The translations under genes were made by a program, and so were the position numbers. The notes beneath the pieces were generated by a model. It was not told the DNA's origin. It saw only the letters and a program-made list of their open reading frames with translations, and searched no databases. A stretch of DNA of 64,000 bases, from contig OZ024754.1 in NCBI GenBank assembly GCA_964016885.1, forward strand, positions 29,698,001 to 29,762,000, written 5' to 3'. This document shows, in pieces, positions 1 to 64,000 of the stretch (position 1 is its first letter; each line of letters opens with the position of its first letter). This stretch comes from Eledone cirrhosa. Its lineage: Eukaryota.

Positions 1-432
1 ATGGATTAGGCTTGTATTCCTATCCTAGAGGGAACCAAATATGTATCCTTCATATTTTTTCTAGAAGAAAAGGGGCTTAATGACAGTATAAATAGTGTCA
101 CAGGGAGACTGTCTCCTTGAAATATACCCCTGTGATATTCTATTTTATCAGTGACGTTATTATCCTACTTCGCTGTGTTTAATTTCAGGAAGAAGATACG
201 ATCTCTATGGCTCTGATACTGGTATCTGGAAATTTAACAGATGCCTTCCTGTAGTTCAGTTTGAAGGTAACTAAGTTCTTCCTATGTTGCCACACCTCTG
301 ACATCACAGCTGCTTGCTCATCCATGATATTATTACTGTCGCAGTGATCTTGGAGAGATAGATTCAGGCAGGCTGTATGCATTTTATACATTAGGTTCTG
401 GCATGCAATGCGTCGGTAGCTTTTTGCCAAGT
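1..432 (-). pseudogene. Decayed R4/Dong-clade reverse transcriptase fragment (related to the family at 49.6-52.0 kb)
   Basis: Minus strand reads LAKSYRRIACQNLMYKMHTACLNLSLQDHCDSNNIMDEQA, aligning with LAKNYRPIACQNIMYKLYTGCLNLFLQDHCATNNIITPEQA of ORF 49680..51923. Positions ~75-137 read YHRGIFQGDSLPVTLFILSLSP, matching YQKGIFQGDSLSVLLFVLSLNP. The 5' truncation abuts a degenerate (GTAT)n tract. Confidence 0.85.
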
Positions 433-639
433 GGGTGTATGTATGTAGGTATATATGTATATAGGTGTATATGTGTGGAAATAACATTCTTGCATTCTCT
501 AGTGACTCAACGCTTAAGACATCGAAATGAATTATATAATCGCTACACCAGAATTTAATGACATTCAGCACACGAAGAAATAATCTTCGCTGCATTTGCG
601 AGATATATATTTCTACCATCAATATATTAAAAATAAACC

Positions 640-763
640 ACACGCACATACACACACACACATATATATATATATATATATACATATATATATATATATA
701 TATATATATATATATATATATATATATATATATATATATATATATATACATACATATATATAT
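640..763. repeat. (CA)n/(TA)n microsatellite
   Basis: Directly visible. It is representative of many (TA)n tracts, e.g. 1005-1090, 1745-1900, 5027-5170, 41885-42260, 52290-52705, 55557-55616, 55735-55811, 57374-57488, 61863-61910 and 63921-63974. Confidence 0.98.
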
Positions 764-1116
764 CAAGAAGGGTCCGGGTAAATATTTCAATCATATCTCA
801 TTTTGTTTGACCCGTTTTAGCTTGTTCGCTATTTTGGCTATGGCGGTTAATGGCTTCTTAACCATCGTCTCAGCGTGTGTGACCTTTTTAACTTATGTTT
901 ATAGCTCTGGTATCTTCTTCAGTTCCATCGAGCGCTTGTCAGCACAATATGGAAGTTGCGTTTCGCTAATATATATACCCGCCGAAATGCGTTTCTCGCT
1001 AAATTATATTTGTATATATATATGTATATATATATATATATATATATGTATATATATATATAGTATATATATATATATATATATATATATTTTTTTTTTA
1101 TATTTTTAATATGATA

Positions 1117-1270
1117 TCCCTGAAATATATATAATGAAATAAATATGGTTTTATAAATGTAATTTCCATTTGTTTAATATCGTAAAATACTCCAAAATCT
1201 GTTGAGTGTTTTTATATCAGTTATAAAATATTTACTCGTTGTAACCCAACATTTTAAATAAAACTTCTGC
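1117..1270 (+). mobile_element. Terminal fragment of the hammerhead-bearing PLE-type repeat seen at 63441-63920
   Basis: GAAATATATATAATGAAATAAATATGGTTTTATAAAT...TGTTGAGTG...ATCAGTTATAAA...CTTCTGC is colinear with the reverse complement of 63441-63602 and ends in (AT)n. Confidence 0.7.
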
Positions 1271-1393
1271 ATATATATATATATATATATATATATGTGT
1301 GTGTGTGTGTGTGTGTGTGTGTGTGTGTGTGTGTGTGTGTGGTTTTGCGGTTCGTTTCGCATTTTCTACCCGCCGAAATATATATATATATAT

Positions 1394-1745
1394 CGCCACC
1401 TTTACCACCTCTTCTACGGCTTCGATATAAATACCCCCTCCGCCTCCGTGGTATTTTCTTCGGGGTTATAAGAGGCTTAGCTCTGTTTCTCGACCGTTAT
1501 ATCGCGTGACTATCTCCCCCTCCGCCTTTTGGGATTCTTTCTCACGTCGTGTAGACGCGTTCTTGAAGCTAGAAAAATGAGGTATCTTCTTGATAAGTCG
1601 GCAGACCTCGCAAAGGCTCTATATCTTTATGATGTACTGTTTTTGTTTATGCCACGAAACTACGTAGTCGAGGAATCTAGGAGCAGTTTAGGTATGATAC
1701 ATTTTATTACTAATTATATCTAAATGTTCCTTCTCTCTTCATAAT
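1394..1745 (+). mobile_element. Putative PLE pseudo-LTR remnant with a decayed hammerhead
   Basis: GC-richer island flanked by (TA)n on both sides. It contains GCCAC-GAAACTACGTAGTC-GAGGA (palindromic helix III, GUC triplet) at ~1651-1674, but the upstream CUGANGA box is degenerate (ATGATGT). Confidence 0.4.
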
Positions 1746-2050
1746 ATATATATATATATATATATATATATATATATATATATATATATATATATATATA
1801 TATATATATATATATATATATATATATATATATATATATAAATATATATATATATATATAAATATATATATATATATATAAATATATATATTTATATATA
1901 TTGTTATACTTTGGGAGGGTCGTGTTGCCAATAAGAAACACACGCACCAGTGCTTTCACTTCAATTTATTATAATAAATTTATAAATTTAGGAATTTATA
2001 AATTTCCTGTTGATTGGTTGGTTCCACAACCAGATGGTTGTTTATATATT

Positions 2051-60913: not shown

Positions 60914-61982
60914 GGAAAAAAAGAATAAGCCGATCAAAAAGCCGCGAAACATCATTTTTAATTAAGCGAAATTAGTGGATGCAAATCTCAGAAAATATTG
61001 TACACTATTCGCACCTATCGCACTATTCGCACCTATCGGTACAAAAAATCGCACGACTGTTAATAATACTAGAAGTGCAAACTATCTGTTGAATACCTGG
61101 AATATGAAGAGCAACCGATACAATCGGTCGGCGATCGGTCTTGAAGAAGAATGAAGAATGAAGTGAAATTTTGGTCTGGTTGTTGTCATCGGTGTTTCGC
61201 AGAGATGCCGGCACGAACAAAGGTGTCAGTGACACAAAGTTGTCCGCTTGAACAAAGGTGTCGGTCCGACAAAGGTGTCAGTCAGACAGACAGTCAGACA
61301 GTGTCACAGTCGGTGCGACAAAGCGGTCGATGCGATTAAAAAAAATTTAACTCACATGTTTACCTATATTTTCGCAAACTATTGATAGATTGGTACAAAA
61401 AATAGCTTTGATAATAAACATAAATTTAAGTATTTAAATTAAAGTATTTAAAAAGCATTTTAGCAGTGAAAAGAGAAGTAATGTTTCACACTGACGCAAG
61501 TAGGGCCGTTCAGAAATGATGTAGTCAATTAGGAGGAGGGGATTCGGCGATTTGACTACATTTGACTAACGTAATCACAATCACAAGAGTTCCGCCGAAA
61601 AAAATTTGTCATTTCTGGATTACCTCCCCTAGCGTCACGCTTACTACTCACTTGAACACAAGATTTATCAGCAAACTTTGATTATAAACTTTTTCCCGCT
61701 GGACCAAATTTCTAGATATTTAAGCCAAAAGATGTGTAATGATCTACTGTTCATGCTCATATAAGTTTTATCTCAGTTAAATAAAGTAGAGCCGCGCTGT
61801 ACTGTCGTAAACAGACGATTGCCAACGAAAACACGACCACAACAATATTACCGTCCGTTTAGGATATATATATATATATATATATATATATATATATATA
61901 TATATATATAGAGAGAGAGAGAGAGAGAGAGAGAGAGAGAGTGAGAGAGAGTGAGAGATAGAGATAGATAGATAGATAGATA

Positions 61983-62873
61983 AATTTCTTTATTAGCCAC
62001 AAGGGCACAAAAGAAGGGGACAAATAGAAATGGGGAGTTTACATACAGGTATATGAAAATAAAACTATTAATAAAATAACAAATAACAATTGAAATCCCC
62101 ACTAGGGGAGAGGCGTTACACAGGGGTTGTACACACCCCGAACAAATGTACAACCCTCATCTCCAGGAGCACCAAGAGTGAGTACTCCCTTCCTCTCTTC
62201 CTCTTTTTCCTCAACCTACAGGCTTATATAGAGAGAAGGCCCAACTACTCGGGCCATCTTTGTCACATTCACCCACCTTTTATAAAATTTGCTGGGGTAC
62301 AGCACATCTCTCTCCATCCTGATTCTTCTTCCAAAATGATATTTGAAAAAACGAATCAGTTGCTCGCCGGAGAGAAAGGTGTCTGACCTCAGCCCTTTTA
62401 ACCTCGTCCACCGTATAACCTCTTTCACCATAGCCATAACACATAGAACACATAAAACCGCCTCTCCCTCGATTTTGACGGAGGGTGGCGGTTTGATCAT
62501 GACAATGGACTCGGTGGTCAACTGGATTGGTCCCACCCGCGACAATAGTCGTTCTACATAGCCCCACAGGTCGGTAACGCCCGGGCAGTGTACAAATGCG
62601 TGCGCGACGGTTTCCTCGTCGTGCACGCATCTCGGACAGATCTTTTTCGAAGGGTCCCTACCCGGGCGCCCGTGTCTGTAGAGCTTGTCTCGAACTGGTC
62701 CTACCGAACAGACTGGCCAGTTCGTCCTCCTCTGCGCCTAGAGTTTCTCCGAGCGTGTCGTCGCACTTGCTGCGAACCAACCCTCTATAGAATGTCGAAG
62801 TGGAGTCTCCACTGATCGCCGGGTCCGTTTGCCAGAGGACTGTGAGCGCCTGAGCACATTCGATGTGCCAGTC
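61983..62873 (-). mobile_element. Second Tx1 family, 5'-truncated 3' fragment, inserted in (TATC)n
   Basis: WHIECAQALT...STSTFYRGLV...DDTLGETLG; EETVAHAFVHCP...MVKEVIRWTRLKGL, homologous to segments C/D. (GATA)n lies on both sides. Confidence 0.9.
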
Positions 62874-63582
62874 AGATAGATATATAGATAGAAAGATAGA
62901 TAGATAGGTATACACTAGTGGATCGGTTTATGTACCAGGATTACTGGATATATGAAGAATCATATAAACTGGGAAATTATTTTGATGTATTAATGGTTAT
63001 ATTTTCTAGTTTATGTTGATTATGATACGTGGAAGTCATTAAAGATACACGTGATATATAAATAATTTATTTGTAAAATATATTTACATAAATGTTCGGC
63101 ATATATATACCACCTTCGAATCATTGCGTCCTGGCTCGTGTTTAACATGGTTTTTGCCTGCATTATTTGCAATCAAACCAATGGATCATTCACACACACA
63201 CACACACATACACACATATATATATATATATATACACATTTTAGTACAGCATTAACGAAGCTTTAGGCTGCGGCTAAGCGAACGAATGCAGATTCGGAAT
63301 GTAGCTTTGGCACGATATATATATATATGTATTATGTACATATGTATATGCATATATATTAAATACATATGTATATATATATATATATATATATTTATGG
63401 CCATACTCGATAACGAGGGGGCAGTCATCATATATATATAAGTAGAAGGGATATTTAATTTGTTGGAAATCCGACAAATATAAATATAAATGTTTATAAC
63501 TGATTTAGAGCACTCAACAAGTTCTTGGGGTAAATATTCAATGATATTAAATAAATGGAAACTATATTTATAAAACCATATT

Positions 63583-63645
63583 TATTTTATTATATATATT
63601 TCAAGGGTACCAAAACACTTTGGTACGCTTCCTTCAGATAAAATA
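63583..63645 (-). ncRNA. Hammerhead motif (core CTGAAGG, A9 substituted)
   Basis: Inverted copy of 63814-63876 with one core change. Confidence 0.55.
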
Positions 63646-63813
63646 CAAAGTTTGTTTTATAAATAGACATATACCCAAGAAAATCATACATTATTAGTTG
63701 GATATTCTCTGGATAGTCCAGGGAATATCCAACTGATAAGAATGACTATCCAGAGAATATAACTGATAAGGTATGATTTTCCTGGGCATGTCTCTATTTA
63801 TAAAACAACTTTG

Positions 63814-63876
63814 TATTTTATCTGAAGAAAGCGTACCAAAGTGTTTTGGTACCCTTGAAATATATATAATAAAATA
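63814..63876 (+). ncRNA. Type I hammerhead ribozyme motif with a palindromic helix III
   Basis: TATTTTAT-CTGAAGA-AAGcGTACCAAA-GTGT-TTTGGTACcCTT-GAA-ATATATAT-A-ATAAAATA: 8-bp helix I, long helix II, AUA triplet. Confidence 0.8.
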
Positions 63877-64000
63877 AATATGGTTTTATAAATATAGTTT
63901 GCATTTATTTAATATCATTGTATATATATATATATATATATATATATATATATATATATATATATATATATATATGAAGAAGAAGTTTATGAAACGGAAA

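Follow-up and report, generated by a model that had tools for sequence, protein, structure and literature searches.

Dong-, Tx1- and Penelope-like retroelements adjoin TA-containing microsatellites, with overlapping preferences, in a 64-kb window of Eledone cirrhosa

A 64-kb stretch of AT-rich DNA from the cephalopod Eledone cirrhosa (contig OZ024754.1 of assembly GCA_964016885.1, positions 29,698,001 to 29,762,000; hereafter the window) holds retroelements related to R4/Dong, to Tx1 and to Penelope whose copies start and stop in simple repeats. We conclude that these families probably insert by target-primed reverse transcription (TPRT) at a nick in a preferred, TA-containing repeat and add a tail of the same unit that serves as a later target, the preferences overlapping between families and not, as an earlier note on this DNA had proposed, dividing the repeats among them. 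The junctions, the nesting of Dong-A copies in earlier tails, the sharing of the TAA/TTA and TA repeats and a partial duplication of the array can be read directly from the window.

Results

Truncated copies begin in the unit of their own tails

The 5′-truncated copies of Dong-A, Dong-C and Tx1-B and one fragment of a Penelope-like element (PLE) start within the unit of their own 3′ tails, far above chance; 5′ junctions in repeat are those of Dong-A2, A3 and A6, Dong-C, an old Dong-C-like fragment, Tx1-B and PLE-2b (Table 1). For the chance level the repeat content upstream of the junction was compared with 40-nt host windows of the same 64 kb. The TACA content upstream of Dong-C or of the old Dong-C-like fragment was reached by none of 1526 such windows and the TATC content upstream of Tx1-B by none of 1658. 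For TA arrays the background is higher, one being 5 bp or less away at 7.7% of host positions. The earlier note would have been refuted by truncated 5′ junctions mostly in non-repeat DNA; truncated copies begin in repeat both here and elsewhere, and targeting is therefore supported over mere tails.

Dong-C and Tx1-B are solo elements, and their 5′ junctions cannot be tails. Such junctions therefore do speak for targeting, though each family contributes no more than one or two events. As had been claimed, Dong-C lies between two (TACA)n arrays and Tx1-B between (TATC)n. Amino acid (aa) identity to Dong-A is 33% for Dong-C and, over the C-terminal part, 39% for Dong-B, and Tx1-A and Tx1-B are sibling families (68-73% nt identity); TACA and the related TACT (below) for a Dong-like lineage, and TTA and TATC for cephalopod Tx1 siblings, are possibly new targets. 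A short duplicated piece of the element, as template jumps would leave, is seen at the 5′ junctions of Dong-C (52018-52050) and Dong-A1 (11645-11657).

A 29-kb nest in one repeat duplex

All seven Dong-A copies are on the minus strand between 7203 and 26205, head to tail, with (TAA)n at both junctions. The earlier note had counted this as seven of seven in a fixed orientation; the junctions of all copies and the single orientation of TAA are confirmed, the independence of the copies is not. A5 is identical to A3 (0/551 differences), and A4 differs from A2 at 6 of 3251 positions, all in the last ~60 nt, where A4 holds A6 alleles; the seven copies therefore amount to five insertions at one locus, A4 and A5 having probably arisen by unequal crossover. 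The five insertions differ from each other by 0.95-4.7%. The 5′ end of each of the truncated copies A2, A3 and A6 lies directly in its neighbour's TAA tail; where the truncation joins are readable, they show 2-4 bases of microhomology. Locally, then, the proposed self-feeding of elements by tails is supported, truncated Dong-A starting in a neighbour's tail and all 11 TAA arrays of the window abutting element ends.

The Tx1-A pieces have (TTA)n before heads X and Y and after tails Z and W, in agreement with the earlier note, and Y and Z form a rearranged inverted block (28004-33436) with one 15-mer from the reverse transcriptase (RT) region at both breakpoints. However, (TTA)n on the plus strand is (TAA)n on the minus strand; the two, which had been listed as separate repeat types, are strands of one duplex, and Dong-A, Dong-B (by its tail) and Tx1-A therefore have a common repeat, used on opposite strands. 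Listed by duplex, TAA/TTA is held by Dong-A, Dong-B and Tx1-A, TACA by Dong-C, TATC by Tx1-B and TA by three PLE-type families.

Both borders of the cluster carry TTACCT followed by TTC repeats, and the pattern TTACCT(N0-2)TTCTTC, picked after being seen, has two matches in the window, one per border, making it a candidate target-site duplication round the entire cluster. The fragment that adjoins the right border, which we take to be RTE-like from a motif recognised by eye (Pfam gave no match), ends in degenerate GAA; with the motif at the two borders this suggests that the nest may have grown at a GAA-rich RTE end. Naming a founder of the cluster was considered and rejected, as the border duplication fits a Dong and a Tx1 founder equally.

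Table 1. Retroelements and related features of the window (positions counted from its first letter)
Feature	Position	Strand	Description	Flanking repeat
Old Dong-C-like RT fragment	1..436	-	68% nt identity over 141 bp	Degenerate (TACA)n next to 5′ junction, 437-476
PLE-4b	1112..1270	+	Single PLE-4-family arm	Adjoins (TA)n
PLE-1a	1902..5026	.	Inverted arm and forward copy with weak RT and GIY-YIG matches; cores resembling a hammerhead	(TA)n at both outer (3′) ends
Left cluster border	7087..7116	+	TTACCT then (TTC)8	Motif again at right border, 36153-36175
Nested retroelement cluster	7093..36153	.	7 Dong-A, 1 Dong-B, 4 Tx1-A pieces, 11 TAA arrays	In (TTA)n on plus, (TAA)n on minus
Dong-A1	7203..11657	-	Full length, open reading frame (ORF) interrupted	
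Dong-B	11706..12734	-	5′-truncated	Tail (TAA)16, 5′ flank (GAA)11
Dong-A2	12862..16110	-	5′-truncated	Begins in TAA tail of A3
Dong-A3	16179..16729	-	5′-truncated	
Dong-A4 + A5	16803..20675	-	A2/A3 duplicated, probably by unequal crossover (A4 = A2 body + A6 3′ tip)	
Dong-A6	20755..21695	-	5′-truncated	
Dong-A7	21738..26205	-	Full length, open frame 1141 codons: RT, CCHC knuckle, RHD, PD..D..K restriction-like nuclease	
Tx1-A piece X	26267..28004	+	Head + ORF1	(TTA)n in front
Tx1-A piece Y	28014..32081	-	Head, ORF1 with CCHC knuckle, apurinic/apyrimidinic-type (APE) endonuclease, RT start	(TTA)13 in front
Tx1-A piece Z	32121..33436	-	3′ end	(TTA)n tail
Tx1-A piece W	33437..36096	+	RT, zf-RVT, 3′ end	(TTA)17 tail
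RTE-like 3′ fragment	36154..36765	-	Right-hand host of cluster	Degenerate GAA end; 5′ flank (CA)n(CG)n
PLE-1b	42262..43666	.	Two inverted 3′ arms	(TA)n at both ends
PLE-2a	43681..43873	.	Two short inverted arms	In (TA)n
Old Dong 3′ fragment	47640..47838	-	No tail seen	5′ flank degenerate TAA/CAA, 47853-47887
Dong-C	49600..52048	-	5′-truncated, open frame 784 codons	Tail (TACA)13; ~170 bp (TACA)n at 5′ junction
PLE-2b	52705..52777	-	73-bp 3′ fragment	(TA)n at 3′ end and at 5′ truncation point
PLE-2c	55812..57373	.	Short inverted arm + forward copy, GIY-YIG-like motif by eye	(TA)n at both ends
Tx1-B	61982..62873	-	5′-truncated	Tail (TATC)5 followed by (TC)n(TA)n; 5′ junction at degenerate (TATC)n
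PLE-4a	63430..63920	.	Non-coding inverted arms, one-sided extension	In (TA)n

Penelope-like elements end at (TA)n

The window has seven PLE-type loci, belonging to three families, with ends at (TA)n. Inverted arms of the pseudo-long-terminal-repeat kind are present at five of them (PLE-1a, 1b, 2a, 2c and 4a), where both outer ends are 3′ ends; taking the two ends of an inverted PLE as a 5′ and a 3′ junction was for this reason rejected. A clean 5′ junction in (TA)n is found at PLE-2b only (52777), the 5′ junction of PLE-4b being ~22 bp from (TA)n. The claim that all PLE families lie in (TA)n thus stands for their ends, most of which are 3′ ends of inverted arms, and a fixed orientation has no meaning for them, as (TA)n is palindromic. 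The arms are extended on one side by ~60 bp in PLE-1a and ~90 bp in PLE-2c, and the short arms stop at internal AATAT/AATAAAT sites running into (TA)n.

PLE-1 matches RVT_1 (E 0.002) and GIY-YIG (E 0.0002), both weak and under the Pfam cut-off, and the GIY-YIG-like motif of PLE-2 gave no Pfam match. PLE-4 has no coding sequence and is presumably a PLE by its architecture. A pattern search found a hammerhead-like core (CTGAAGA, a 6-bp stem, GAAA) in all four PLE-1 arms, which had no Rfam match; by the CTGAAGA/GAAA pattern none was found in PLE-2 or PLE-4.

Assignment to clades

Dong-A7, -B and -C carry CCHC, RHD and NRPD...D...K motifs and match RVT_1, and their best solved-structure relatives over RT to nuclease are R2 proteins. 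R4 elements are not known to have N-terminal zinc fingers or a protease, which sets them apart from R2, NeSL and Utopia. Neither was detected in Dong-A7 by eye or with Pfam, and its N-terminal domain is alignable with that of a full-length Dong-C relative. Judged by their domains, the three fit the R4/Dong layout of a single ORF with RT, CCHC and a PD-(D/E)xK nuclease; the matches include no Dong or R4 sequence that carries a name, and the tree described below is one of relatives without such references. Dong-A shows the (TAA)n insertion of Dong sensu stricto in five independent copies, in reads and in relatives. Dong-C, found in (TACA)n and not (TAA)n, appears from its sequence to be Dong-like in working and a separate lineage. 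Among 88 Rfam matches (E up to 1) there was no ribozyme family such as the HDV-like (hepatitis delta virus-like) 5′ ribozyme, no dedicated fold search having been made; the matches were microsatellite-driven microRNAs only, below the gathering score.

Tx1-A matches Exo_endo_phos (E 5.9e-15), RVT_1 (E 3.7e-29) and zf-RVT (E 4.9e-8), with a CCHC knuckle in ORF1 seen by eye, and by these domains fits the Tx1 layout (a knuckle in ORF1; APE, RT and a C-terminal zinc-binding domain in ORF2). No named Tx1, Kibi or Koshi reference was among its matches. By the rule attributed to Kojima (2015), a Tx1 family is reportedly target-specific when the target stands in more than 20% of its flanks. Argonauta hians (65% for Dong-C, 69% for Tx1-A) and Acanthosepion pharaonis supply the closest named protein relatives of these two elements, which agrees with a coleoid and probably octopod host.

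Reads of another sample and relatives in other eukaryotes

Sixteen read runs matched Dong-A7, and four of them were aligned to 21715-28000. Among the joints listed for the raw restriction-site-associated DNA (RAD) reads of run X14, 11 of 15 run from different points of the Dong-A body (22094 to 25665) back into the TTA tail (21715-21740), and two further body-to-tail joints bring the total higher, with TTA-type letters in between; other loci therefore also have Dong-A copies joined head to tail through TAA. The depth of X5 over Dong-A drops ~tenfold from 3′ to 5′, as for a multicopy family that truncates at the 5′ end. Run X11 gave 69 aligned reads, and the contig runs X5 and X1 are uninformative at repeats.

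In metagenomes and contaminated assemblies we found 103 Dong-related loci, some of which repeat one element, and 68 have scorable upstream DNA. Of the relatives that seem truncated, 12 of 49 have sense TAA upstream, as do 8 of the 19 that are close to full length, versus 6 of 852 control windows, and in 9 of the 12 truncated relatives the repeat is at most 8 bp from the first aligned codon. A quick tree of 48 rows (45 loci and three window proteins, other loci being excluded for short coverage or a missing C-terminus), read with a long-branch warning, pairs Dong-C only with locus L075 (SH-aLRT, an approximate likelihood-ratio test, 100; long stem; 48% aa identity versus ~33% for others). L075 is a full-length element whose contig starts and ends in (TACT)n, and this one sister locus lends independent support to a Dong-like lineage in TAC-N repeats. 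Four further loci (L012, L016, L013 and L020) form a well-supported Dong subclade whose tails are not (TAA)n but poly(A), (TA)n or (TTA)n; units therefore change along the tree. A Dong-C-clade alignment found no locus in genome contigs or viral contigs. The Tx1 alignment gave 43 loci in genome contigs (31-56% aa identity, mostly from one contaminated assembly), which are no test of Tx1-A, and none in viral contigs; a search with P0246 gave no match. One Dong-like locus from viral contigs (L147, 31% aa identity) has (TAA)n on both sides and may reflect host contamination or an insertion in a virus.

Other features of the window

A segment at 58272-59367 with ~226-bp terminal inverted repeats and 34-bp subrepeats looks like a non-autonomous DNA transposon, and in a minisatellite at 38732-39889 a 15-bp unit is repeated 77 times (92% matches). 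Between TA/GT arrays lie two unclassified segments (763-1004 and 1341-1743), which have short motifs in common and no further copy in the window. Repeats resembling short interspersed elements (SINE-like) lie at 44340-44520, 47889-48140, 53460-53600 and 53760-53960; a short (TA)n precedes that at 53460, and a degenerate TTA run that at 47889.

Discussion

Known biology of retrotransposons without long terminal repeats (non-LTR) suggests how such insertion would proceed. The nuclease of the element would nick the bottom strand at TTA for Dong-A, TGTA for Dong-C, TAA for Tx1-A, GATA for Tx1-B and TA for PLEs, pairing of the repeat tail of the RNA with the nicked strand would aid priming, and the 5′ joins would be made through short microhomology. 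The tail added would be of the same unit and become a target for later copies, also for those of another clade on the other strand, a local feedback that would build nests such as the 29-kb cluster. Sister families have switched unit, between TAA and TACA/TACT in Dong and between TTA and TATC in Tx1, and likewise in Kibi, Koshi and crocodilian Tx1.

Several observations weigh against this reading. Dong-C is represented by one young and one old copy, Tx1-B by one copy and Tx1-A by one rearranged locus, and no empty-site allele was seen. The X14 joints listed leave aside 384 joints and 2523 loose ends, most of the body joints rest on a single read start, and a RAD cut site in the 3′ end of Dong-A enriches tandem joins; the repeat at 26197-26268 was skipped in the read alignment, which places the heads of full-length Dong-A and Tx1-A outside the test. 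Among the relatives, 37 of the 49 truncated ones have no upstream TAA (many alignments may miss the true junction), and of 39 scorable 3′ ends 16 have TAA, two TTA and five other units, leaving 16 with no microsatellite. In one contaminated assembly of another eukaryote, loci L104-L145 are Tx1-like (46% aa identity to Tx1-A) in ~6.5-kb head-to-tail arrays on many contigs with no microsatellite spacers, perhaps a self-targeting family; repeat targeting is therefore not general in that lineage. Finally, the (GAA)11 at the 5′ side of Dong-B is unlike its TAA tail, so that the tail is as the earlier note described it but one unit on both sides is not found. Either Dong-B entered a GAA run or the GAA is the target duplication of a compound repeat. 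(GAA)8 also follows the TAA tail of A1, and compound (TAA)n(GAA)n is present in the window at 7093-7188 and 12735-12848, in Dong relatives of unrelated hosts (L068:30-90 and L085:7545-7640) and at one joint among the reads, so that Dong may have GAA as a second target, unless it is a junction product.

The strict form of the earlier proposal, with restriction-like, APE and GIY-YIG nucleases on non-overlapping microsatellites and tail feedback having produced the extreme repeat load, we consider improbable. Sister families do differ in unit, and Octopus vulgaris has more than 1100 young Dong-R4, 421 L1-Tx1 and 336 PLE insertions, counted without a target analysis in the accessible part of that text (PMC13282606). 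In a census of perfect arrays of at least 18 bp (56 arrays, 3116 bp; element ends placed by homology and by eye), moreover, arrays abutting element ends are 11/11 for TAA, 2/2 for TACA, 1/1 for TATC and 12/24 for TA, or 1953 of 3116 bp (63%) overall and 54% outside the 29-kb cluster. However, the TAA/TTA duplex serves restriction-like Dong-A and Dong-B together with the APE-type Tx1-A, and TA is common to several PLE families, so that neither the partition of repeats nor the assignment of the three nuclease types to different microsatellites is supported. No element end adjoins the 10 AC arrays (520 bp), the two AG arrays or 12 of the 24 TA arrays, and the AC and AG arrays, which have no partner among the families, count against the load claim. 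Adjacency, besides, cannot separate target from product, as it fits tails seeding arrays and elements filling earlier arrays equally well, and these counts come from one window dense in transposable elements (TEs), a nest and no random genome sample.

A more serious competitor, which we still regard as unlikely, is that the unit is set mainly by the RNA: the nucleases would cut loosely at TpA or AT-rich DNA, only nicks that pair with the tail would be extended, and a change of tail would switch the target. All target units include a TpA step, and this alternative therefore stays alive. It also accords with the tail unit equalling the 5′ flank unit in Dong-A, Dong-C, Tx1-A and Tx1-B, with the PLE short arms that stop at sites running into (TA)n, with a PLE nuclease that prefers merely AT-rich DNA (PMC11167929) and with the Dong subclade of mixed tails. 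Against it stand Dong-B, whose tail and 5′ flank differ, loci L036 and L062, which have poly(A) 3′ ends yet (TAA)n at the 5′ side (their short-read contigs may merge different copies), the report that the endonuclease mainly determines target choice (PMC4494074) and the finding that a PLE primes at RNA sites which lack homology to the DNA that is cut (PMC11167929). Very improbable, in our judgement, is a passive origin, in which elements with repeat tails insert broadly and nesting, duplication, survival in harmless repeats or assembly error produces the pattern. Two of the seven Dong-A copies are indeed a duplication, the Tx1-A block is rearranged, and Drosophila Waldo accumulates passively near CA repeats (PMC3812793), but solo, 5′-truncated Dong-C and Tx1-B begin exactly in their own rare unit, five independent Dong-A insertions are joined base-to-base at TAA in one orientation, and like joins are found both in other eukaryotes and in the reads from a second sample.

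Insertion at a preferred repeat, as in the reading we favour, has precedent. Microsatellite targeting by Dong, Tx1 and PLEs, several targets per genome and TEs as repeat carriers are already published: Dong is found in TAA in silkworm, mosquito and snail, Kibi in TC, Koshi in TTC, Waldo in ACAY and Mino in AC, Anopheles having three units and fugu two (PMC3812793), crocodilian Tx1 in (TTCC)n/(TTTC)n (PMC4494074), Togen in TG (PMC4640811), and Naiads in (TA)n and Chlamys in (CA)n, with inverted arms and extensions (PMC8557442), while an Anolis PLE cuts AT-rich DNA (PMC11167929). An octopus Dong is on record, as is an RTE with a microsatellite 3′ untranslated region (PMC9115989), and in penaeid shrimp TEs are carriers of the expansion of simple sequence repeats (SSRs) (PMC7878876). 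Like Dong-A, Dong of Bombyx mori, DongAg and DongBg have a single ORF with RT, CCHC and restriction-like nuclease and sense (TAA)n at both junctions (PMC3812793, PMC3774820). They differ from the elements described here in host, in that Dong-C is a deep lineage (33% aa identity) in (TACA)n with a sister in (TACT)n, in the GAA flank of Dong-B, and in that Dong has an HDV-like 5′ ribozyme (PMC3774820), which Rfam did not detect here.

Kibi, Koshi and crocodilian Tx1 resemble Tx1-A and Tx1-B as two-ORF APE elements whose related families differ in unit, several per genome, whereas the units here are (TTA)n and (TATC)n and the likeness is one of layout (PMC4494074). Several units per genome are likewise seen with Waldo (ACAY)n, Mino (AC)n and DongAg (TAA)n in Anopheles gambiae and with Kibi and Koshi in fugu; ACAY covers ACAT/TACA, but Waldo is an R1-clade APE element and the TACA element here belongs to a restriction-like Dong lineage, and the PLEs here would add a third nuclease type (PMC3812793). 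Naiad, Neptune and Chlamys (PMC8557442) and Anolis PAc (PMC11167929) share inverted arms, one-sided extension, (TA)n bias and perhaps a hammerhead core with the PLEs of the window, whose extensions are longer (~60 and ~90 bp versus 30-40 bp reported) and whose PLE-1, unlike Naiads, has a putative C-terminal GIY-YIG (PMC8557442). The shrimp work shares the idea that TEs, including Penelope and RTE, drive extreme microsatellite load; it counts SSRs in or near TEs, and its accessible part has no family-specific targeting test (PMC7878876). Our literature search returned nothing on TACA-type Dong, TTA/TATC Tx1 or cephalopod target choice, and Repbase notes or supplements may already record the units. 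The window shows behaviour that is already known, in a host that is new for it and with two or three units that are possibly new.

More tentatively, and with somewhat less than even confidence, these elements may belong to a cephalopod guild of repeat-seeking retroelements in which sisters switch target by one base, with a deep, widespread Dong-like lineage in TAC-N repeats (TACA, TACT) and Tx1 siblings in TTA and TATC, and in which the majority of tri- and tetranucleotide arrays would come from tails, which would also feed clades with other types of nuclease (an RTE GAA end, then Dong and Tx1 on opposite TAA strands). How microsatellite-specific retrotransposons choose their unit is described as poorly understood (PMC3812793). 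Where a single host has sister families that differ in unit (TAA versus TACA in Dong, TTA versus TATC in Tx1), these are ready pairs for swaps of nuclease and tail, and if there is such a guild they would be natural pairs for finding the determinant of repeat specificity. A genome-wide table of junctions would show what share of the repeat load these families account for and why such loci break assemblies and microsatellite markers.

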